DNA of 64,000 nt, taken from an uncultured Gemmatimonadaceae bacterium (lineage in GTDB: Bacteria > Gemmatimonadota > Gemmatimonadetes > Gemmatimonadales > Gemmatimonadaceae). Shown here piece after piece: positions 45,289 through 58,597 of this stretch. The DNA is taken from NCBI GenBank assembly GCA_963751275.1, contig CAVVTZ010000007.1, positions 192,001 through 256,000 on the forward strand, in the 5' to 3' direction. The stretch's first letter is position 1, and each line of letters begins with the position of its first letter. The notes under the pieces were generated by a model. That model was given only the letters and a program-made list of their open reading frames with translations. It made no database searches and was not told the DNA's origin. Made by a program: the position numbers and the translations under genes.

Positions 45289-46504
45289 GGCCGAAGAGTT
45301 CGAGTGCGGCGCGAAGGCCGCCGATCAGCGCATCCACATCCCGCTCGTCGTTGTACACCGAGAAAGATGCACGCGCCGTCGAGCCCACGCCAAGCCGGCG
45401 CATCAGCGGCTGCGCGCAGTGGTGCCCCGCGCGAATGCGATGCCCCGCGCATCCAGTATGGACGAAAGATCGTGCGGATGCACGTCCGCGAGCGTGAAGC
45501 TCACCACCGCGCCGCGCCCCGTGCCCGCGGGCGGACCGTACACCCGCACGCCCTCCACCGATGCCATCTGCCCGATCGCTCGCGACGCCAGCGCGCTGCC
45601 GTGCGCGTGCACCGCGTCCATGCCGAACGTCGCGAGATAGTCCGCCGCCGCGGCGAGCCCCACGGCGCCCTCCACGTTCGGCGTGCCCGCCTCGAACTTG
45701 TGCGGCAGCACGTTCCAGGTGCTGTGGTCATCGTGCACGAACTCGATCATGTCGCCGCCAGTCTTGTATGGCGGCATCGCCTCGAGCAGCGCGCGCCGGC
45801 CCACCAGCGCGCCCACGCCCATCGGGTCCGAACATCTTGTGCCCGCCGAAGGCGTAGAAGTCCACGCCGAGCGCGTCGATCGACACGGGCATGTGCGGCG
45901 CCGCCTGCGCGCCATCGCACACGCTGATCGCACCCGGCGCCGCCTCGCGCACCAAGGCGGCGATCTCGCGCACCGGGTTCACCGCGCCCAACACGTTCGA
46001 CACGTGATTGAACGCCACCACGCGCGTGCGCGCGGTCACCAGTCCGCGAAGCTGCTCGAGGTCCACGGAACCATCCGCGCCCAGCGGCGCGATCGTGAAC
46101 TCGGCGCCGCGCTCGAGCGCCAGCTGCTGCCAGGGGACGAAGTTGCCGTGATGCTCCGCCGCCGTCACGATGATCCGGTCGCCGGCGCGCACGTTGGCGC
46201 GCCCCCACGTGGCGGCCACGAGGTTCAGCGACTCGGTGCATTCCCCCGTGAAGAGGAACGTGTCGGGATCGGCCACGCCGAAGAAGCGCGCCAGCCGCTG
46301 GCGGGCGTTCCGGTACGCCGACGTCGCGCGCGCCGAGAGCGCGTATGCCCCGCGATGCGGGTTCGCGTAGTCGCGCGTGTAGAACTCGGCGATCGCGTCG
46401 AGCACCACGCGGGGCTTCTGTGATGTCGCCGCCGTGTCGAGGTACACGAGCGACGGATCCGCCGCGAGCAGCGGGAAATCCGACCGCGGCGCGAGCGCGC
46501 TCAT
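45275..46504 (-). CDS. sufS: SufS cysteine desulfurase (frameshifts ~45827, ~45435)
   Basis: YLDTAATSQKP, EHHGN, HVSNVLG, DGAQ, GHKM, FEAGTP, RAGHHCAQP. Confidence 0.9.
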
Positions 46505-46824
46505 GTGCGGCGCGGCCCCACGCAGATCATGCCGCCGATCACCATCACGCGATACACCGCGATCGGCTCCTCAGCGGGCGGATGCACCGGCGTGCCGGTG
46601 GTCAGGTCGAACTGCGCACCATGCCAGGCGCATTCGAGCCGGCCGCCGGGCAGCAGCGTGCCATTGTCGAGCGGGAATTCCTGGTGGGAACAGTGGCCGG
46701 CCACCGCGCGGATGGTGCCGCGGTCGTTGATCAGGCACACGTGCTCGCCGGCGGACGTTCGGGCGGCGAGCAGCGTACCGAGCGGCAGGTCATCCGCGGG
46801 CACCAGCGGCTCGTAGCCTTCCAT
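46501..46824 (-). CDS. Rieske [2Fe-2S] ferredoxin
   Basis: CSH...CAWHGAQFD. Confidence 0.9.
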   Translation of the reverse strand: MEGYEPLVPADDLPLGTLLAARTSAGEHVCLINDRGTIRAVAGHCSHQEFPLDNGTLLPGGRLECAWHGAQFDLTTGTPVHPPAEEPIAVYRVMVIGGMICVGPRRT

Positions 46825-48140
46825 CAGGCGCCGGCTCCGGCCCCGGCGAATCGCGCGAGCGAGAGCGACTCGAGGCGGTCGCGCACCGGCGCGAGCTCGA
46901 TCGTCTCGATCACGTCGGCCGCGAACGCGTACGTGAGCAGCCGGCGCGACCGTCGGCGCCGATGCCGCGGCTCTCCAGATAGAACAGCGCCATCTCGTCG
47001 AGCCGGCCGACGGTCGCGCCGTGCGTGCACTTCACGTCGTCGGCGAAGATCTCGAGCTGCGGCTTGGTGTCCACCCGCGCGCGCTCGGAGAGCAGCAGGT
47101 TCGTCGTTGGTCTGCTTGCCGTCGGTCTTCTGCGCCTCGGGATGCGACGTACACCTTGCCGTTGAACACGCCGTGCGACGCGCCGTCGAGGATCCCCTTG
47201 TAGAGTTCGCGGCTGCGCAGCGGGCGCGAGGTGCTCGATGCACGTCTGATGGTCGACGTGCTGCGTGCCGTCGGTCATGTACAGGCCGTTGAGCGCGTCG
47301 CCGCATCCCGGCCCGGCGAGCTGCCGTGTAGATGTTCGTGCGCGAGAGCGCCGCGCCGCTCGCGAACGAGAAGGACTGGTAGTGGCTGTCGCGCCCCTGC
47401 ACGGCTTCCACCGTGGCGACGTGAAAGGCCCGCTCGCTCTCGCGCTGGATCTTGTAGTGTCGCAGCGTCGCGCCATTCGCCCACGTGCGATCTCCGTGAC
47501 TGCATTCGTGAGGTACGCGCGCCGCGCCGGTGGACACGTAGCTCTCCACCATCGCCGACCTGCGATCCGCGCTCCGCCACGATCAGGTTCCGCACATGCG
47601 CCGCGCCCTCGGCGGCGTTCGCATCGGCGAGAAGAGGAGATGCACCGGCGACGCCGCCTCGACGTTCGCGCCAATGTGCACCACGGCGCCGTCGTCCAGG
47701 AAGGCGGTGTTGAGGGCCGTGAACGGCGCGTTCTCCGCCTTGGCGATGCGGGTGAGGTGCCGTTCGAGCAGCTCCGGCGCTTCGCGCCACGCGCGCGGCA
47801 TGTCCATCACGCGCACGCCGGCGCTCGCGGTGCCGGTGGAGAGCTCGGCGCGGAAGCGGCCGTTCACGAACACCATCACCGGCCACGACGGGTCGAAGCG
47901 ATGCGCCGCGAGCGCCAGGGCATCCACCGTGGTCGCGACGCCGTGCAGCAGCCGGAACTCCGCCGCCGCGATCGGCGGCGGCGTTCGTGAAGTGCCAATC
48001 TTCGTTCTTCATCGTGGGGAAGCCGAGCGTCTCGAAGCGCGCGATCGCGGCGCGGCGCGCATCGCGCAGCCACGACGGCGCGGCGGCCCCGCCGTTCTTC
48101 GCGAACACCGCGTGCTGCTCGACGTAGTCCTGCACCGTCG

Positions 48141-48144
<4 letters not shown>
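46824..48144 (-). CDS. sufD: Fe-S assembly protein SufD (multiple frameshifts)
   Basis: [52 protein letters not shown] spread over several frames. Confidence 0.88.
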
Positions 48145-48894
<750 letters not shown>

Positions 48895-48922
48895 GGAATG
48901 CCTGTTCTAAGAAATGGTATGG

Positions 48923-49027
48923 CGCGGGACTCGGGACTCGGGACTCGCCGCGGGACGCGATAACACAGAGAGCGTGCTTTCGTCAGTTGTCGCGTCCCGC
49001 GGCGAGTCCCGAGCCCCGAGCCCCGCG
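48923..49027. repeat. 42-bp inverted repeat with GGGACTC 7-mers between sufB and sufC
   Basis: 48923-48964 vs 48986-49027, 39/42 matched. Confidence 0.9.
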
Positions 49028-49031
49028 TAGT

Positions 49032-50465
<1,434 letters not shown>

Positions 50466-50533: not shown

Positions 50534-50617
50534 CGTCGCAGCTTCGCGGACTTCCCCTGCGTAATGTCTTGCGGCGGAATGCGTTACGTGGATGGCGCCG
50601 GGTAAGGTGTTTCCTGA

Positions 50618-50666
50618 CGCAGTGCGGCATTTCTCCCTTGCGCGCCATGCCGCACTGCGGTATAAT
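50618..50666 (+). promoter_or_regulatory. Sigma70 promoter of phaR-like gene overlapped by a 13-bp inverted repeat
   Basis: TTGCGC-N17-TATAAT (50638-50666); CGCAGTGCGGCAT (50618-30) / ATGCCGCACTGCG (50647-59). Confidence 0.75.
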
Positions 50667-50672
50667 CCGCCT

Positions 50673-51140
50673 GTGAACACTCGCCACATCACCCGCTACG
50701 GGAGCCGCAAGCTGTACGACAGCTCCGCCCGGCAGTACGTGTCGCTCGATGACCTCGCGCGCCACGTACGGGCCGGGGAACACCTGCGGGTGATCGACAA
50801 GAAGACGGGGCACGATGTCACCGCCCAAACGCTCGCGCTGGTGCTGTACGAGCAGGCGCGCCAGGGCGAGCAGCTCCTCACGAGTGAACTGTTGCACGAC
50901 GTGATCCGCTCGGGGATCGGGCAGCTGCAGGAAAAGGTCGATGAGATCGTCACCGCCGGCGTCGATCGGGTGAAGCCGCTGCTCCATGCCCGCGAAGAGA
51001 TGGCGCGGCTGCGTGCCGGGATCGCGGGGATCGAGAAGTCGCTGAGGGAGTTCGCGAAGGAGACGAAGAGCGGACCTCGGCGCACAACTCCCGGCGCCCG
51101 GCAACGGCGGACGGCGAAACGCAGGAAACGGGAAGCCTAG
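50673..51140 (+). CDS. phaR: PhaR-type PHA accumulation regulator (DNA-binding domain)
   Basis: [39 protein letters not shown]. Confidence 0.82.
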
Positions 51141-51208
51141 ATGATCCCGGTGATGTGACACAGGCACGCACTCGGGATGAACCACTTACCTGCTGAGAGG
51201 AACCAGTT

Positions 51209-51694
51209 ATGAAAAAGACCAACGCATTCGCACCCAAGGCGATCATCGCCAAGACGGCCGAGATGGCGCAGGAGCGCGCGCTGCAGGTGCAGGAGACGGC
51301 GCAGAACGTATGGTTCGCCGGACTGGGCGCGCTCGCGCTCGCCGAGGACCGCAGCGGCAAGCTGTTCAAGGAGCTGGTGAAGAAGGGCGAGGCCGTGGAT
51401 CTCAAGAACAAGAAGATCTTCAGCGGCATGGTGAAGGACGTCGAGGCCCGCATCGAGTTCGCGAAGGAGACCATGGTGGACGCGACCAGCGGCACGTACG
51501 AGAAGGTGAGCGGCGGCCTGGAGAACGGCATGGCGAGCGTGATGCACACGTTCGGCGTTCCCACCCGCAATGAGATCAAGACGCTGACCAAGAAGGTCGA
51601 CCTGCTCACGCAGAGCGTCGACAAGAAGTCCAAGCGGGCGATCAGCGCCGGCACCAAGCGGGTGCGTAAGGCGACCGCCGCCGCGCGCAGCTAG
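51209..51694 (+). CDS. Phasin, PhaF/PhaI-like granule-associated protein
   Basis: AQNVWFAGLGAL, KLFKELVKKGE, FGVPTRNEIKTLTKKVDLL, basic tail. Confidence 0.85.
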   Translation: MKKTNAFAPKAIIAKTAEMAQERALQVQETAQNVWFAGLGALALAEDRSGKLFKELVKKGEAVDLKNKKIFSGMVKDVEARIEFAKETMVDATSGTYEKVSGGLENGMASVMHTFGVPTRNEIKTLTKKVDLLTQSVDKKSKRAISAGTKRVRKATAAARS

Positions 51695-51711
51695 CAACCG
51701 ACGGGAGCGAG

Positions 51712-52965
51712 ATGCGCCGCATGCGCCGGCACGCCAGCCGCAAGATCGGGCTGGCGCTTGCCGGCGGCGGTCCGGAGGGCGCCGTGTACGAGATCGGCGC
51801 CCTGCGGGCCCTCGAGGAAGCGCTGGACGGGATCGACTTCAATGATCTCGACAGCTATGTGGGGGTGAGCGCCGGCTCGTTCGTCGCCGCCCTCCTCGCG
51901 AACGACATCCCCATCTCGCAGCTCGTGCGGATGATCGTCACGCACGAGCCCGACGAGCAGCCTTTCCACTTCGAGAAGTTCTTCGCGCCGGCATACGGCG
52001 AGCTCGCGCGGCGCGGCCTCATGCTGCCCGGCCTCGTCGCGGAATCGATCCTGAAATTCGCACAGAAGCCCGGCGACCAGAGTCTGCGGGAGGCGTTCAC
52101 GCTGCTCGGCCGCGCGATCCCCGTTGGACTGTTCGACAACGATCCGATCCGCCGGTATCTCGAGCGGACCTTCGCGCGCAAGCACCGCACGAACGATTTC
52201 CGGAAGCTGCGCCGCAAACTGATCGTGGTCGCGGCGGATCTCGACTCCGGCCGGCCGATCCTGTTCGGCGGCAAGGGATGGGACCACGTGCCCATCTCGA
52301 AGGCCGTGCAGGCGAGCACGGCACTGCCCGGCCTCTATCCGCCGGTGCAGATCGATGGCTCCGATTGCGTGGACGGCGTGCTGCTGCGTACGGTGCACGC
52401 CTCGGTGGCGTTCGAGCAGGGCGTGGAACTGCTGCTGTGCGTGAACCCGATCGTGCCCACGGATGTCCGGCAGGCGGTGGGGCAGGGCCTCATGCCGAGC
52501 GGCATCCTCACGCGCCGCGGGCTGCCGTCGGTACTGTCACAGACGTTCCGTACGCTCATCCATTCGCGGCTGGAGGTGGGATTGTCGCGCTACGCGACGC
52601 ATTTCCCCGGCGCGGACCTCGTGCTCTTCGAGCCGGGGCGGGACGAGTACGCGATGTTCTTCTCGAACATGTTCAGCTTCTCGTCGCGGAAGGACGTGTG
52701 CGAGCTCGCGTACCGGCACACGCGCCGCGAGTTGTGGTCGCGCCGCCGCGTGCTCGAGCCGCTCTTCAAGAAGCACGGCGTGACGCTGCGGCTCGATGTG
52801 CTCAAGGACGAGACGCGCTCCGTGTGGGAGAGCGCCGGCGTGTCGACCAAGCGCCGCGCCAAGGTGTCCGCCAAGCTCCACCGCGCGCTGGCCGCGCTCG
52901 AGGACTCGGAGCGCTCCGTGAATGGCAAGCGGCGGCTCGGGCGCAAACGGAAGGTCGCGGTATAG
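51712..52965 (+). CDS. Patatin-like phospholipase/lipid hydrolase
   Basis: LALAGGG, GVSAG nucleophile, ASTALPG, VDG. Confidence 0.9.
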   Translation: MRRMRRHASRKIGLALAGGGPEGAVYEIGALRALEEALDGIDFNDLDSYVGVSAGSFVAALLANDIPISQLVRMIVTHEPDEQPFHFEKFFAPAYGELARRGLMLPGLVAESILKFAQKPGDQSLREAFTLLGRAIPVGLFDNDPIRRYLERTFARKHRTNDFRKLRRKLIVVAADLDSGRPILFGGKGWDHVPISKAVQASTALPGLYPPVQIDGSDCVDGVLLRTVHASVAFEQGVELLLCVNPIVPTDVRQAVGQGLMPSGILTRRGLPSVLSQTFRTLIHSRLEVGLSRYATHFPGADLVLFEPGRDEYAMFFSNMFSFSSRKDVCELAYRHTRRELWSRRRVLEPLFKKHGVTLRLDVLKDETRSVWESAGVSTKRRAKVSAKLHRALAALEDSERSVNGKRRLGRKRKVAV

Positions 52966-53023
52966 GCTTCGCGCCCATGGTGGTCGAGTCCCGCGCACCC
53001 GCGCGACCATCACGGTTCAAGCT

Positions 53024-53199
53024 TTGAACGGATGAGACGGATGAATCCGGATGACACGGATCGCTCCCGCGGCGCGGGAGCTCTCCATTCTCCGGCACCC
53101 TTGTATCGCAGTATCCGCCAGATCCGTAAGCAGTTTGCGCGATGTCCTTTGGCGTGCGCATCGTGCCCGTTCACGCGGTCTCCGTCAGATCCGTTCCAA
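53024..53199. repeat. Degenerate inverted element with periodic CGGAT/ATCCG units
   Basis: ttgaaCGGATgagaCGGATgaatcCGGATgacaCGGAT ... tccgtcagATCCGttccaa. Confidence 0.6.
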
Positions 53200-53230
53200 C
53201 AGCTGTACCGCGATCTCCCCTTGCGGATCC

Positions 53231-54416
53231 CTACTTCCGCGGCGGCAACGGCCGGTCCTTCAGCCGCCAGATGAACTCGCCGCGGATCTCGCGCGCGCGC
53301 TCCTTCGGGATGCCGCGATAACCATACGGCGGTTTGCGCCACGCCCGGCAGAGCGAGAGGATCGGCCAGCCGAAGGGCAGGTAGTACCCGATCAGATCGA
53401 GGTCCCGCAGGAAGGCGTGCAGCCGGTTCTTCGGCGGCGCGCGGCGCGCGTCCCGCTCGTGGCGCACGAACGCCAATGGCCAGCCGAGCGGCACGATCTT
53501 CCAGAATTGCCCGCGCGCTTCCTTCATCTTCTTCCAGAGCGTGTCCACGCGGTACGGCTTGCGTCCGTGCAGCTGCACCAGCTCGTTCAGCTCCACCTGC
53601 ATCCGGTGCCGCACCTTCACGGCCACGGTGCGCAGCTTCTCCCGGTCGGGCTCCTCGAGATCGCCGCACTCCTCCTCGCGCACGAGCTTCGCCATGTCGA
53701 TGGGCTCGCCGACCACGAAGATGAGGTTCGCCGGCAGCGCCAGGTACCACATCCACGGGAAGATGATCGCGAGGATCCCGATCGGCAGCGGGAGGAACGG
53801 CACGGTGAACACCCGCTGCATGAACTTGTCGAGCGGCTTGAAGGGGAACCCGAACGGGTTGATCCACTCGGCGTTGATCATGTACACCGGCAGCACCGGC
53901 GTGCGGTTGCGCGCGCCGAGCAGCACGAAGCTCGTGCTGAAGCGCTGCAACTGATAGCGGCGGTGGAATCCCTTGCCGATGCCCGGCACGCCCTCGGGGA
54001 AATACAGCACCCGCTCCTTCCGCTTGAGCAGGATGTCGAAGTTGTCGAACAGCATGTCCACGCCGCCGCCGCGGCGCCAGAAATCATCCAGCCCGAATGG
54101 CCGCATCCACCATGCGAAGCTCAACTCCTTCTCGTACACCGTGCGCAGCTTCGACTCCTTCGTGTAGCCGTAGTGCTTCCAGAGCAGGCTGTCGAAGACG
54201 ATCGCGTCGAAGGGGAAGGCGTTGCCGCTGTGGTTACCGGCAAGGATCACGGGGCCGTGGTCGGGGATGTGCTCGAGCCCGAAGATCTGCGCGCGGAACC
54301 AGAATGTCGTTGATCGGCCCCATGACGTGCGCGCAGATGTCGTGCGCGAACGCGGGCTGGAACGGCTCCCATTCGTGCGTGGGCAGCGGCGGCGGCGCGG
54401 GGTCGTTGCGGCTCAT
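53231..54416 (-). CDS. LPLAT superfamily (MGAT/DGAT2-like) acyltransferase (frameshift ~54303)
   Basis: WFRAQIFGLEHIP..GPVILAGNHSGNAFPFD, YFPEG..GIGK...RYQLQRF, VGEPI. Confidence 0.85.
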
Positions 54417-54420
54417 CGCG

Positions 54421-56082
54421 CTACCGCCGCGTGGCGAGGATGAAGGCCAGCCCGAACAGCGGCGCCCAGGCGTACCACGGCGCGTGGAACGCGACGAGGA
54501 TCGCTCCGGCGACGAGGCACGCCCCCGCGATCAGCGTGCCGCGCAGTCCGGACAGCGGATTCTCCGCCGGCCGTTTGATCGACCGCTCGAGCACGCGCAC
54601 GCCGTCCGTCACGAGCGACGGCATCTTCAAGAGCGCATCCACGAGGTCCGGCGCGCCGCGCAGTTCCTCCTGGAAGAGCCGCACCGGGCTGAACTGCCCG
54701 ATGAACACCCGCCGCACGTGCGAGCGCGATTTCTCCGCCACGTCGAAGCCCGGCAGCAGCATGTGCCCCACGCTCTCGTACGTGATGAGCGACTTCACCA
54801 TCAGCACCAGCTCCACCGGGAAGTACATCCGGAACTGCGCGCCCTTGCTCACGCTCTCGAGCGTCAATTGCGCGAGCGAGAAACCCTCGAAGCTCGCCGC
54901 GCGCTTCCACCGCCCGGAGATCTCGGCCACTTCGCGGCGGAACCCTTCCGGATCGCCGCGGCGCCCGGGCTCGGCCACCGATGCGAGGTACCGCGCCGCG
55001 TTCTCCGCGTCGCCCATCACGAGCGAGTAGTAGTAATAGAGCAGCCCACGCCGGAGCTCGTTGTCGAGTCGACCGACCATGCCGAGATCGATGAAGCCCA
55101 CCTGCGGGCCCGGCAGCACCACGAGATTTCCGGGGTGGAGATCGGCGTGGAAGAAGCCGTCCTTGTAGATCATCTGGATGATCGAGCCCGTGCCGAGGTC
55201 CACGAGACGCTCGCGGTCCTCGAGCGGCAGCGCCTGCGCCCTCTTGGAGTCCGGTCGCTCGCCGTCCAGGAACTCCATGGTAAGCACGGTGCGCGAACTG
55301 TAGTCCCGGAAGATCGTGGGGAAGATGATGTCGGGCTGGTCCGCGAAGTTCGCGTGGAAGGTGTCGCAGTTGTCCGCTTCGCGGCGAAGATCGACTTCCT
55401 TCAGCGTGTAATCGCAGAATTCCTTGATGATCCGCTGCGGCTGGTAACGGCTGAAGAAGAGCTGCAGCGTGGCGCCCACTCCCCGAAGCAGCTTCGCGTC
55501 GGTGATCAGCGTCTCGCGGATGCCCGGCTTCACCATCTTGATCACGACGTCGTCGCCGTGGATGGTGGTGGCCCGGTGGATCTGCGCGATCGACGCGGAG
55601 CCGAGCGGCACCTCGTGCACGTCCGCGAACATCGCGGCGATCGGACGGTCGAGGCTCTTCTCCACCATCTCGCAGAACACCGGGTACGGCACGATCGGCA
55701 AACGGTCGAGCAGATTGCGCAGCTCGTCGGTGATCGGCTTGGGGAGGATGTCCTCGCGCAGGCTCAGGATCTGTCCGAGCTTGATGTACGTGGGGCCGAG
55801 CAGTTCGAGCCGCCGCCGCAACTGCACGGGGAACGGCTGGTCGCGCAGGTCGCGGCGGATGAACGGCCGCACGAGGAAGGCGCCTGTGCCGGCGATCGCG
55901 CGCAACAGATAGCGCGGATCACGCGCATCGCGCAGGCTGTGCGAGTACGAGACCAGTCCGCCCGCGAGCAGCGCGGTCGTCTGGTGCACGGTCACCACGA
56001 AGCGGCGCGCGAGGCTCGGCGCCCGCGTGTCCGTCATGAACGTGAAGCCCGGCGGCGCGCCCTCCGCCGCGGTCGCCGTCAT
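54421..56082 (-). CDS. AarF/ABC1/UbiB family atypical kinase
   Basis: LGPTYIKLGQ, GSASIAQIH, FHADLHPGN, IDLGMVG, two C-terminal TM helices. Confidence 0.93.
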   Translation of the reverse strand: MTATAAEGAPPGFTFMTDTRAPSLARRFVVTVHQTTALLAGGLVSYSHSLRDARDPRYLLRAIAGTGAFLVRPFIRRDLRDQPFPVQLRRRLELLGPTYIKLGQILSLREDILPKPITDELRNLLDRLPIVPYPVFCEMVEKSLDRPIAAMFADVHEVPLGSASIAQIHRATTIHGDDVVIKMVKPGIRETLITDAKLLRGVGATLQLFFSRYQPQRIIKEFCDYTLKEVDLRREADNCDTFHANFADQPDIIFPTIFRDYSSRTVLTMEFLDGERPDSKRAQALPLEDRERLVDLGTGSIIQMIYKDGFFHADLHPGNLVVLPGPQVGFIDLGMVGRLDNELRRGLLYYYYSLVMGDAENAARYLASVAEPGRRGDPEGFRREVAEISGRWKRAASFEGFSLAQLTLESVSKGAQFRMYFPVELVLMVKSLITYESVGHMLLPGFDVAEKSRSHVRRVFIGQFSPVRLFQEELRGAPDLVDALLKMPSLVTDGVRVLERSIKRPAENPLSGLRGTLIAGACLVAGAILVAFHAPWYAWAPLFGLAFILATRR

Positions 56083-56083
56083 G

Positions 56084-57631
56084 TCAGCGATTCCGCCCGT
56101 ACTTCTCGTGCGAGCTCACCCACTCGAGCGATGAGATCGCCGCGGCCAGCGAGATCTCGCCGGCGAGCACGACCCCGGCGATGATCTCGGCCAGCTTGTG
56201 CGCCTTCCCCTTGCCCACGCAGCCCAGGATCTCGAGGCACTCGCGCTGGGTGGGGAGCGCCGTGCCGCCGCCGTGCGTGGCGACGATGAGCGACGGGATG
56301 GTGATCGAGATGTACAGGTCGCGCGCCGGCGTCAGCTCCGAGTAGATGATGCCGGCGGCGCCCTCGGAGACGTTCGCCACGTCCTGCCCGGTGGCGATGA
56401 ACATCGCGGTGATGCCGTTCGCCGAGTGGAGCCCGTTGTTGTTGGCCCCGGAGAGCAGCGTGCCGACGTTCGCGACGCCGCCGTGATAGGTCAGGCTCTC
56501 CGGCTCCACCCGCAGTTCGCTCATCAGCACTTCGCGCGGGATCGTCGCCTCGGCCGTCACGCGCTTGCCGCGCGTGCGCATGACATTCACCTGCGAGGCT
56601 TTCTTGTCCGTGGCGAAATTCGATTCGAGGAAGAAGCGGCGGATCGTGGGCACCTGCTCCAGGATCCAGCTGCACGCGGCGAAGGTGGCGCGCCCCGTCA
56701 TGTTCTGCCCGGCGGCGTCGCCCGTGCTGAAGTTGAAGCGCAGGTACGCGAACTTGCTCGCGAGATAGATGTCGATGTAGAGCATCTTCGCGACGCTGGA
56801 GGTGGCCTCCGCCTCCTTCGCGATCTCCGGCAGATGCGCGTTCACCCACGTGCGGAACTCGCGCGCCTCGCGCGCGGAATCGAAGATGAACACCGGCGCG
56901 CGCTGCATGCAGTCGTCGCTCACCGTGCACGTCACGCCGCCCGACAGGTTGAGCACCTTCATGCCGCGGTTGTAACTCGCGACGAGCGTGCCCTCCGTGG
57001 TGGCGAGCGGGATGAGGAACTCGCCCTGCGCGTGCTCGCCGTGCACCATCAGCGGGCCGGCGAGGCCGAGCGGCACCTGCGCGACGCCAATGAAGTTCTC
57101 GATGTTCCCGCGCGTCAGCTCCGGATCGAACGACGGCTTGTTGACGTGCTTCAGATCCTTGCCGCTCGCCTTGGCGAGGAAGCGGTGCCGTTCGGTGATG
57201 ATCTTCGGCGAATAGTTGAGCGCCGCGTCCTTCTCGTACGGGATGGAGGTGCGCTTGGTCTGCGCATCGTGGAGCGCGTCCTTCACCGCGATCTCGAGCT
57301 CGCCGAAGCCGCTCGCTTCCACGAGCAGCTTGATCTCGTGCGACCCGTGCGTGAGCGGGCGCGCCTTGGCGTGCAGGTGCGCGATCTCCTTGAGCGGGAA
57401 GGGCACGGCCTGCTGCGGCGTCAGGTCCGCCGCTGCCATGTCGCGGCCGGCGCCGAACTGCACGCGCACGTTCTGGAGCGGCACCTCATCCCCATCCACG
57501 CGCAAGCGCACGAGACGCGTCAGCGTCACGTCGCTCAGCCGGTTGCGCAGGCTGAACGCGAATCCGTCAGCGGTGTTCTCCAGCGAACCGAAGGTGTACA
57601 ATTGCCGCAGCAGGAGCGAAGGGATCTTCAT
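56084..57631 (-). CDS. Class I-like HMG-CoA reductase with about 120-aa extra N-terminal domain
   Basis: ENFIG..QVPLGLAGPL, PLATTEGTLVAS.NRG, TGDAAGQNM, NFATDKK, GQDVANV, GGGT, LAGEISL, C-terminal His. Confidence 0.9.
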   Translation of the reverse strand: MKIPSLLLRQLYTFGSLENTADGFAFSLRNRLSDVTLTRLVRLRVDGDEVPLQNVRVQFGAGRDMAAADLTPQQAVPFPLKEIAHLHAKARPLTHGSHEIKLLVEASGFGELEIAVKDALHDAQTKRTSIPYEKDAALNYSPKIITERHRFLAKASGKDLKHVNKPSFDPELTRGNIENFIGVAQVPLGLAGPLMVHGEHAQGEFLIPLATTEGTLVASYNRGMKVLNLSGGVTCTVSDDCMQRAPVFIFDSAREAREFRTWVNAHLPEIAKEAEATSSVAKMLYIDIYLASKFAYLRFNFSTGDAAGQNMTGRATFAACSWILEQVPTIRRFFLESNFATDKKASQVNVMRTRGKRVTAEATIPREVLMSELRVEPESLTYHGGVANVGTLLSGANNNGLHSANGITAMFIATGQDVANVSEGAAGIIYSELTPARDLYISITIPSLIVATHGGGTALPTQRECLEILGCVGKGKAHKLAEIIAGVVLAGEISLAAAISSLEWVSSHEKYGRNR

Positions 57632-57778: not shown

Positions 57779-58597
57779 CTACCGGAAGACCAGGTAGAGC
57801 ACCAGCAGGATGCTGGCGATCGCCGCGCCGATGAGCATCGGCATCAGCGGCAGGCGCCGCGAACCGTCCACCGGATATTTCCCGCCCTCCATCGTGACGG
57901 CGCGCTGCGCGAGCTGCGTGCTGCGGCGGCTGAACGCGTCGTCATCGTGGTCCTCGAACTGCACCGGGCGCACGCCCGGGGGCAGCGGCTGGCGCGTGAA
58001 GGTGAAGATCGTGTCGCCCACCTGGATCTGGTCACCCTCCACCAGGATCTTGGGGTCCTTCGCGGGCTGGTTGTTGATCTTCGTGCCGGACGAACCCATC
58101 GAGTAGATGACGAATTCGCCCGCTTCGCCGCGCACGTCCGCGTGGAAGCGCGACACGGTGGGATCCTTGAGCACGATGCTGCAGCCGATCTCGCGCCCGA
58201 TCTGCACGACGCGCTTGCGCAGCGTGTAGCCCTTTCGGCTCGAGGTGTCGATCAGGTGTGCATCGGCCGGCGGCTTCGCGGCGGCGGGGCGCGCCGTGGC
58301 GGCGTCCTTCAGGAAGACGAATCGCGCGTTGCCCGCCGCGATCACATCACCCGAATTGATCGGTGTGCCCGATGGCGGCACCTGCTTGCCGCTCACGACC
58401 ACCACATTCTGCGGCGACGCGGGCACGACGGCCCCCGTTCCATCGATCGATCCGCGGACCTTGAAATGCCGCGCCGCCAGGTCCAGTCCCGCGAGACGCC
58501 ACTCCGCCTGCGATCCGCTCCCGACCATCAACTCGCCGTTGAATTCGCGCGGGTTGCCATCGAGGTCGGGCTTTCCTTCGAGCTCAAGAACGGGCAT
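57779..58597 (-). CDS. Tandem FHA-domain protein with C-terminal TM anchor
   Basis: QIGR...IVLKDPTVSRFHA...GSSGTKIN...LVEGDQIQVG; degenerate first FHA (LAARHF). Confidence 0.85.
   Translation of the reverse strand: MPVLELEGKPDLDGNPREFNGELMVGSGSQAEWRLAGLDLAARHFKVRGSIDGTGAVVPASPQNVVVVSGKQVPPSGTPINSGDVIAAGNARFVFLKDAATARPAAAKPPADAHLIDTSSRKGYTLRKRVVQIGREIGCSIVLKDPTVSRFHADVRGEAGEFVIYSMGSSGTKINNQPAKDPKILVEGDQIQVGDTIFTFTRQPLPPGVRPVQFEDHDDDAFSRRSTQLAQRAVTMEGGKYPVDGSRRLPLMPMLIGAAIASILLVLYLVFR

Follow-up and report, generated by a model that had tools for sequence, protein, structure and literature searches.

FcrA, a fatty acyl-CoA reductase first described in 2025 (Grossi et al., PMC11948995), is defined by three pocket changes and an N-terminal Lad domain, the latter present only in some of its members. 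Pb-FcrA, the sole assayed member, reduced acyl-CoA of C14 and longer with NADPH and did not reduce 3-hydroxy-3-methylglutaryl-CoA (HMG-CoA). Bacterial wax-ester potential has been surveyed with the wax ester synthase/diacylglycerol acyltransferase (WS/DGAT) as the marker (PMC11948995, PMC10351704), a 2022 review describes bacterial wax synthases as WS/DGAT-type, and phasins beside WS/DGAT have already been reported (PMC10351704). The wax synthases of vertebrates are related to DGAT2 (PMC9113324), and three ABC1 kinases together with Slr2103 are known as cyanoglobule proteins (PMC12223511); Slr2103 makes acyl-plastoquinol (PMC10156143) and reportedly also phytyl esters and triacylglycerol (TAG; PMC12048435). 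The present study concerns six genes in a 64,000-nt stretch of contig CAVVTZ010000007.1 (the window, whose positions are used for all coordinates below) from an uncultured Gemmatimonadaceae genome of 3.1 Mb and 83% completeness (G000, the source genome), in which PhaR-like, phasin and patatin genes face genes for an FcrA-type reductase, an ABC1 kinase and a PF01553 acyltransferase. The closest named homologs of the source genome belong to Gemmatimonadales/Gemmatimonadota.

These six genes are proposed to make up a wax-ester storage module that does without PhaC and has a substitute synthase, a reading to which a probability of roughly 0.7 is assigned. As in the FcrA and WS/DGAT pathway of PMC11948995, the reductase of the locus has the Lad domain, all four catalytic residues and all three pocket changes, and no mevalonate pathway was found; the locus differs in that no WS/DGAT match was found in the source genome and a PF01553 enzyme occupies the WS/DGAT slot. 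Given its PlsC fold, its H-x7-D motif and its DGAT2/MGAT-like nearest kin, this enzyme is therefore predicted to be a bacterial wax synthase unrelated to WS/DGAT, and probably is one. The broader reading, namely that H-x7-D acyltransferases are such wax synthases and have repeatedly been swapped with WS/DGAT in a widespread module using phasin and PhaR without PhaC and a dedicated ABC1 ATPase, is advanced with somewhat less assurance as a reasonably likely generalization.

All 72 aligned members of the acyltransferase family matched PF01553, none of them matched the WS/DGAT families PF03007 or PF06974, and the HHxxxDG motif was not in the family consensus. The catalytic motif of the family is H-x7-D, with H-x6-D in its nearest outside relatives, and the four other PF01553 genes of the source genome carry H-x4-D (three genes), which is the PlsC/AGPAT spacing, or H-x5-D (one gene). 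Owing to these four genes, the window enzyme is not needed as a housekeeping PlsC; moreover, it fell short of assignment to PlsC/AGPAT, with 18.7 bits against the TIGR00530 cut-off of 102.95, and no NCBIfam model matched it at cut-off. The model of an intact relative (P0121, pLDDT 90.1) revealed a GPAT/PlsC acyltransferase fold, with matches to GPAT1 (8e50; Z 13.6, root-mean-square deviation (rmsd) 4.0, 235 aligned), PlsC (5kym; Z 12.6, rmsd 3.1, 188 aligned) and also plant GPAT, PatA and LpxM; its barely probed C-terminal helical region (about residues 297-380) gave no fold match, and a PDB profile search with the family alignment returned two chance matches only. The window enzyme has one hydrophobic segment.

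Regarding its kinship, PF03982 (DAGAT) was detected at E<=0.001 in 9 of 26 scanned more distant homologs (three above cut-off) and in 91% of the neighbouring Atlas cluster. The family formed a supported clade, separate from its nearest outside relatives and from the PlsC-like genes of the source genome, in a tree where the latter sat on long branches and characterised DGAT2/MGAT members were not included. Judged from its sequence, the acyltransferase is nearest to DGAT2/MGAT-like proteins and would work like that group, of which it is a possible member. Compared by description with the vertebrate AWAT1 and AWAT2, it has the same predicted reaction (acyl-CoA plus fatty alcohol) on a possibly DGAT2-related rather than a WS/DGAT scaffold, whereas those enzymes are eukaryotic and the bacterial proteins group in a clade of their own. 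Two homologs, P0248 and P0256, were found fused to a TAtT/BstC-like domain and a PilZ domain, respectively.

The conservation of the module was followed in the best 80 of at least 579 confirmed GTDB loci found with the reductase, in which neighbour genes were recounted by tblastn. Alongside the reductase, these loci held ABC1 (55), phasin (26), phaR (22), a close patatin (22), WS/DGAT (19) and the acyltransferase (9), and phaR, phasin and patatin were all present in 19 of the 50 loci whose downstream sequence spans at least 8 kb. Loci holding phasin, patatin and ABC1 belonged to Acidobacteriota (14) and Gemmatimonadota (7), and rearranged versions occurred in KSB1 (L092) and Calditrichota (L096). 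The two halves thus recur together in relatives of at least two phyla, and the pattern that the initial annotation had named as fatal to its proposal, halves never co-located in related genomes, was not observed. The module is also accompanied by a tandem pair of ArsA-like ATPases (15 and 14 of the 80 loci), a GMC oxidoreductase (20), FadD (9) and SCP2 (4), as in L011 (208-5821); the source genome harbored the GMC gene (67%, C2) and FadD (45%, C9), and the ArsA-like pair was not found in it.

Among acyltransferase-led metagenome loci (80 of 128 confirmed, many of them short and two apparent duplicates), the 55 with a close acyltransferase included ABC1 in 44, FcrA in 30, phasin in 26, patatin in 26 and phaR in 22, and the 25 with a distant one included ABC1 in 7, FcrA in 4, phasin in 6, patatin in none and phaR in 6. 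The distant clade (33-41% identity; L182, L186, L193, L197, L203, L204) adjoins alpha/beta-hydrolase esterases, FadD with a short-chain dehydrogenase, small phasin-like proteins and DUF445, suggesting that the lipid-storage context reaches beyond the close acyltransferase family.

In the same 80 GTDB loci, the gene directly after ABC1 was WS/DGAT in 13 and the acyltransferase in 8, and no locus held both; an apparent WS open reading frame (ORF) at L068 was an overlapping-frame artefact and disappeared in the recount. At the genome level, 56 FcrA carriers were searched, partly picked by locus content: 50 came from the 80 loci, namely from every locus with the acyltransferase (9) or WS/DGAT (19) and from 22 others, and 6 were further genomes. 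WS/DGAT scored above cut-off in 42 of the 56, one of which (G065) also had the acyltransferase, and all 14 genomes without WS/DGAT above cut-off carried the acyltransferase (E<1e-50). The 22 genomes chosen for a locus that lacked both genes proved to be WS-only (20) or acyltransferase-only (2). Furthermore, 301 genomes were drawn evenly from the phylum of the window and not by trait, of which 37 had reductase matches, 24 in the close clade (E<=2.4e-169) and 13 distant (38-43% identity). Among the 24, the acyltransferase occurred in 14 (seven genera), WS/DGAT in 10 (two genera) and both in none, and the other 277 genomes had neither gene. WS/DGAT was also found in 0 of the 80 metagenome loci. 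The WS/DGAT searches were run without a matching control genome and matched 43 of 56, 10 of 301 and 104 of 251 genomes searched (the last being a class sample, see below); a PF03015 (FarA) search matched nothing, controls included, and is uninformative. An FcrA tree of 67 rows showed 11 changes for each trait. The replacement between acyltransferase and WS/DGAT recurs across lineages, and the kinship-corrected test was not significant.

That test and several other observations weigh against the proposed module and exchange. The independent-pairs test, which was run on a quick tree and included rows with both genes or neither, yielded eight pairs; in 186 of 200 pairings, five of them were opposite, none the same and three without a difference (p=0.0625). 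Nine of the ten WS/DGAT carriers of the phylum sample came from one genus, and in the class of G061 (251 genomes) the 58 close-FcrA carriers comprised 49 with WS only, 3 with the acyltransferase only, 1 with both and 5 with neither (Fisher p=0.007, uncorrected), besides 55 WS genomes without a close FcrA. FcrA was near in just 4 of the 25 distant-clade loci, and PF03982 was matched by only 1 of the 72 family members, weakly (E=0.16). The acyltransferase of the window is itself frameshifted, in a genome that is 83% complete. In addition, G596 (L216, G596:C1) has an ABC1-acyltransferase-patatin-phasin-phaR-ArsA cluster, no close FcrA in the genome and WS/DGAT elsewhere; its acyltransferase match has a stop inside.

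A further point on that side is that WS/DGAT is itself bifunctional, so that its replacement could be making TAG, and the replacement pattern alone cannot separate wax from TAG. The acyltransferase would then stand in for WS/DGAT as a DGAT/MGAT, with a droplet of mainly TAG and the FcrA alcohol minor or separate, as might be expected from the PF03982 DAGAT matches of its nearest outside relatives and from the TAG that Slr2103 reportedly makes besides esters (PMC12048435). This alternative is considered unlikely in view of the short gaps (1 and 4 bp) that couple the acyltransferase to FcrA, the close FcrA in 14 of 14 acyltransferase carriers of the phylum sample, and the neighbour families, among which no phosphatidate-phosphatase-like family was prominent (27 of 71 representatives scanned).

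Less probable still, the FcrA alcohol and the PlsC-fold enzyme may make alkyl-ether or other membrane lipids, the storage genes being neighbours of a related pathway. An ether lipid has been proposed for pairs of FcrA and PlsC-like genes (PMC11948995), ElbD combines FAR and AGPAT-like domains (PMC9131029), and the fold of the acyltransferase is that of GPAT/PlsC; however, an ether-lipid enzyme would have no reason to exclude WS/DGAT or occupy its slot, nor to accompany phasin, PhaR and patatin.

The reductase had been labelled HMG-CoA reductase (HMGR) in the initial annotation, which fits its fold and not its function. Alignment to solved class I HMGRs revealed that the catalytic residues Glu213, Lys343, Asp417 and His508 were kept, and all four were present in 207-209 rows of the family alignment (212 rows, some duplicates; per-column counts exclude gaps). 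At the position of human Ser684 the window reductase has Glu336 (Glu in 208 of 208 non-gap rows), at that of human Leu862 it has Trp504 (Trp in 206 of 209), and at that of the HMG-carboxylate lysine it has Val386/Ala387 (Lys in 0 of 209), human residue numbers being inferred from the 1dq8 chain. We take this lysine to be human Lys735 and read the Lys795 printed in the paper as Lys735. A homolog from Promineifilum sp., the genus of the assayed FcrA, showed 65% identity to the window reductase and identical signature residues. By its signature residues and Lad domain, the window reductase is a member of the known FcrA family, and acyl-CoA reduction is predicted for it.

The gene content of the source genome was searched for mevalonate and MEP genes, as had been suggested for this locus. 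The search found no match for HMG-CoA synthase in the genome (83% complete) and nothing above cut-off for mevalonate kinase, and dxr, encoding the MEP enzyme Dxr, was present; no mevalonate pathway was thus found. Among the 56 FcrA carriers, an HMG-CoA synthase match exceeded the cut-off in 12, three of them strong. A mevalonate or isoprenoid role was rejected on these grounds together with the FcrA pocket, in which the sites contacting the HMG carboxylate (Ser684 and Lys735) are changed. Because the reductase is not an isoprenoid HMGR, an isoprenoid ester or acyl-quinol is not supported as the main product; the idea that the six genes make, coat, regulate and mobilise a neutral lipid holds as far as a storage system and the wax ester, one of three products originally listed, are concerned, and fails for the other two. 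Very little weight is accordingly given to a true HMGR that feeds an isoprenoid alcohol or quinol to the acyltransferase in a plastoglobule-like body: the intact class I fold and catalytic residues, the acylation of plastoquinol by Slr2103 (PMC10156143) and the presence of ABC1 kinases and Slr2103 in cyanoglobules (PMC12223511) would accommodate it, but the HMG carboxylate pocket is altered exactly as in FcrA, whose assayed member did not reduce HMG-CoA (PMC11948995), and the gene content described above speaks against it.

Some variation was observed around the reductase. The FcrA of several acyltransferase-type clusters (L015, L127, L158, L160, G168, G289 and G350) seems to lack the Lad domain, as matches begin at about residues 115-128 (L127, L158 and L160 were judged by gene spacing), and in L228 (G364:C1) WS/DGAT and a full-length FcrA flank a Lad-like domain that stands on its own at about 9755 (38% to residues 7-120). 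In L018 (G018:C118, 3667-11087) a different unit is headed by a distant FcrA-like gene, which is 42% identical, has Glu at the Ser684 position and lacks the HMG lysine; the other genes of this unit, read from their ORFs, presumably encode a UbiA-like membrane protein and phosphoenolpyruvate-utilising kinase-like, DUF3419-like and phytol-kinase/cytidylyltransferase-like proteins. This unit suggests another fate for a fatty alcohol.

Turning to the other half of the locus, the phaR-phasin-patatin unit resembles the polyhydroxyalkanoate (PHA) granule system (PhaC, PhaP/PhaF, PhaR and depolymerase) in combining a PhaR-type DNA-binding domain, a PF05597 phasin and a hydrolase, but differs from it in that no PhaC was found, in its linkage to wax-ester genes, and in PhaR-like and phasin proteins that score below the NCBIfam cut-offs. 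For phaC, neither PF07167 nor TIGR01836 matched in the source genome (83% complete), TIGR01836 exceeded its cut-off in none of the 56 FcrA carriers (one weak 67-position match), and PF07167 was absent from five of five acyltransferase-type genomes of 96-99% completeness, with the Caulobacter control matched in each search. Phasin was likewise absent from five of five complete relatives without FcrA. With the halves co-occurring and phaC not found, the proposal of a PhaC-independent, conserved neutral-lipid storage system is supported and a PHA role was rejected: that the three genes serve ordinary PHA granules, with a PhaC that the assembly lacks or that has diverged beyond detection, is scarcely credible even though they match PHA-associated families and the source genome is just 83% complete, since phaC was not found above cut-off in any of the carriers searched, near-complete ones included, and phasins next to WS/DGAT are already known (PMC10351704).

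The nucleotide-binding motifs of the ABC1 protein in the window are intact, and its C-terminal part includes a hydrophobic segment. Describing the putative storage body as plastoglobule-like is a fair analogy, drawn from the ABC1 kinases and the DGAT2-like enzyme of cyanoglobules. Slr2103/MFAT and the plant phytyl ester synthases belong to the same acyltransferase superfamily as the window enzyme, make neutral esters and occur alongside ABC1 kinases in lipid bodies, but their substrates are plastoquinol, phytol and diacylglycerol; the window family, compared by description, differs in H-x7-D, a helical C-terminus, a near absence of PF03982 signal and a predicted coat of phasin.

In the proposed pathway, FcrA would convert long-chain acyl-CoA and 2 NADPH to a fatty alcohol, as its homolog does, with the Lad domain possibly carrying the acyl chain as proposed in PMC11948995. 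The acyltransferase, replacing WS/DGAT, would join the alcohol to a second acyl chain at the membrane. Going by what is known of their families, the phasin would serve as the droplet coat, the PhaR-like protein may sense or repress, and the patatin would hydrolyse the stored ester. By analogy with UbiB/ABC1K proteins, ABC1 probably works where membrane and droplet meet, in ATP-driven lipid handling.

The new element appears to be the acyltransferase, FcrA having been published and phasin beside WS/DGAT noted before. The literature searched, which included bioRxiv 10.64898/2026.07.24.740503 and PMC9131029 and from which most subscription papers were outside scope, yielded no report of the acyltransferase family, of an exchange between it and WS/DGAT, or of phasin, patatin and wax-synthase clusters with FcrA. 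The main text of PMC11948995, as far as available, has no mention of phasin, patatin, ABC1 or Gemmatimonadota, and its supplement, outside the scope here, may show FcrA gene neighbourhoods. If the acyltransferase makes wax, surveys with the WS/DGAT marker would miss 14 of the 24 FcrA genomes of the phylum sample, more than half, and wax storage would have been overlooked in Gemmatimonadota, Acidobacteriota, Calditrichota, KSB1 and probably Bacteroidota lacking that marker. It would also provide wax biotechnology with a new enzyme scaffold. Moreover, the locus allows a bacterial relative of the little-studied DGAT2-like group (PMC10156143) to be tested with two genes, and it offers a simple genetic setting for the role of phasin without PHA and of ABC1 kinases at lipid droplets.

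The arrangement first read from the window, six ORFs in two converging three-gene units, was borne out in full (Table 1). The units converge over 265 bp, with gaps of 1 bp between reductase and ABC1 and 4 bp between ABC1 and acyltransferase. For the PhaR-like gene a GTG start was chosen, an in-frame ATG lying upstream at 50592, and the patatin motifs (Gly-rich, GxSxG and DGx at residues 18, 51 and 221) are intact.

Table 1. Features of the six-gene locus, in window positions
Feature	Position	Strand	Evidence
PhaR-like transcription regulator, N-terminal DNA-binding domain	50673..51140	+	PF07879 E=9.8e-19; TIGR01848 67.9 bits, below the 109.45 cut-off
Phasin, predicted droplet coat	51209..51694	+	PF05597 E=1.1e-24; TIGR01837 77.1 bits, below the 94.7 cut-off
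Patatin-like lipase, predicted mobiliser of stored ester	51712..52965	+	PF01734 E=2.1e-25
PF01553 acyltransferase with H-x7-D motif, predicted wax ester synthase unrelated to WS/DGAT	53231..54416	-	PF01553; frame split by one extra base
ABC1/UbiB-family atypical kinase/ATPase, putative role as in text	54421..56082	-	PF03109 E=7.7e-59; TIGR01982 below cut-off
FcrA-type fatty acyl-CoA reductase, class I HMGR fold	56084..57631	-	PF00368 and PF25653; PDB alignments; family columns
Lad (long-chain alkyl carrier) domain, N-terminus of FcrA, residues 7-120	57272..57613	-	PF25653 E=4e-33

The frameshift in the acyltransferase gene is due to one extra base at about 54304-54306, and contigs of four sequencing runs (related strains, 85% threshold) were all one base shorter at this site. 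Just upstream of the locus, suf-like Fe-S assembly genes (45400-50440, labelled by eye) are split into several frames, which is consistent with indel errors in the source assembly. Given the shorter contigs and the suf genes in pieces, the frameshift is likely an assembly error, the alternative being a strain-specific lesion.

A promoter and terminator scan of the locus returned no promoters and three terminator-like sites, no excess over shuffled sequence. Upstream of FcrA and on the same strand, a gene for an FHA-domain protein (57779-58597) is followed by molybdopterin-dehydrogenase genes, and in several relatives FcrA is likewise preceded by genes similar to these.

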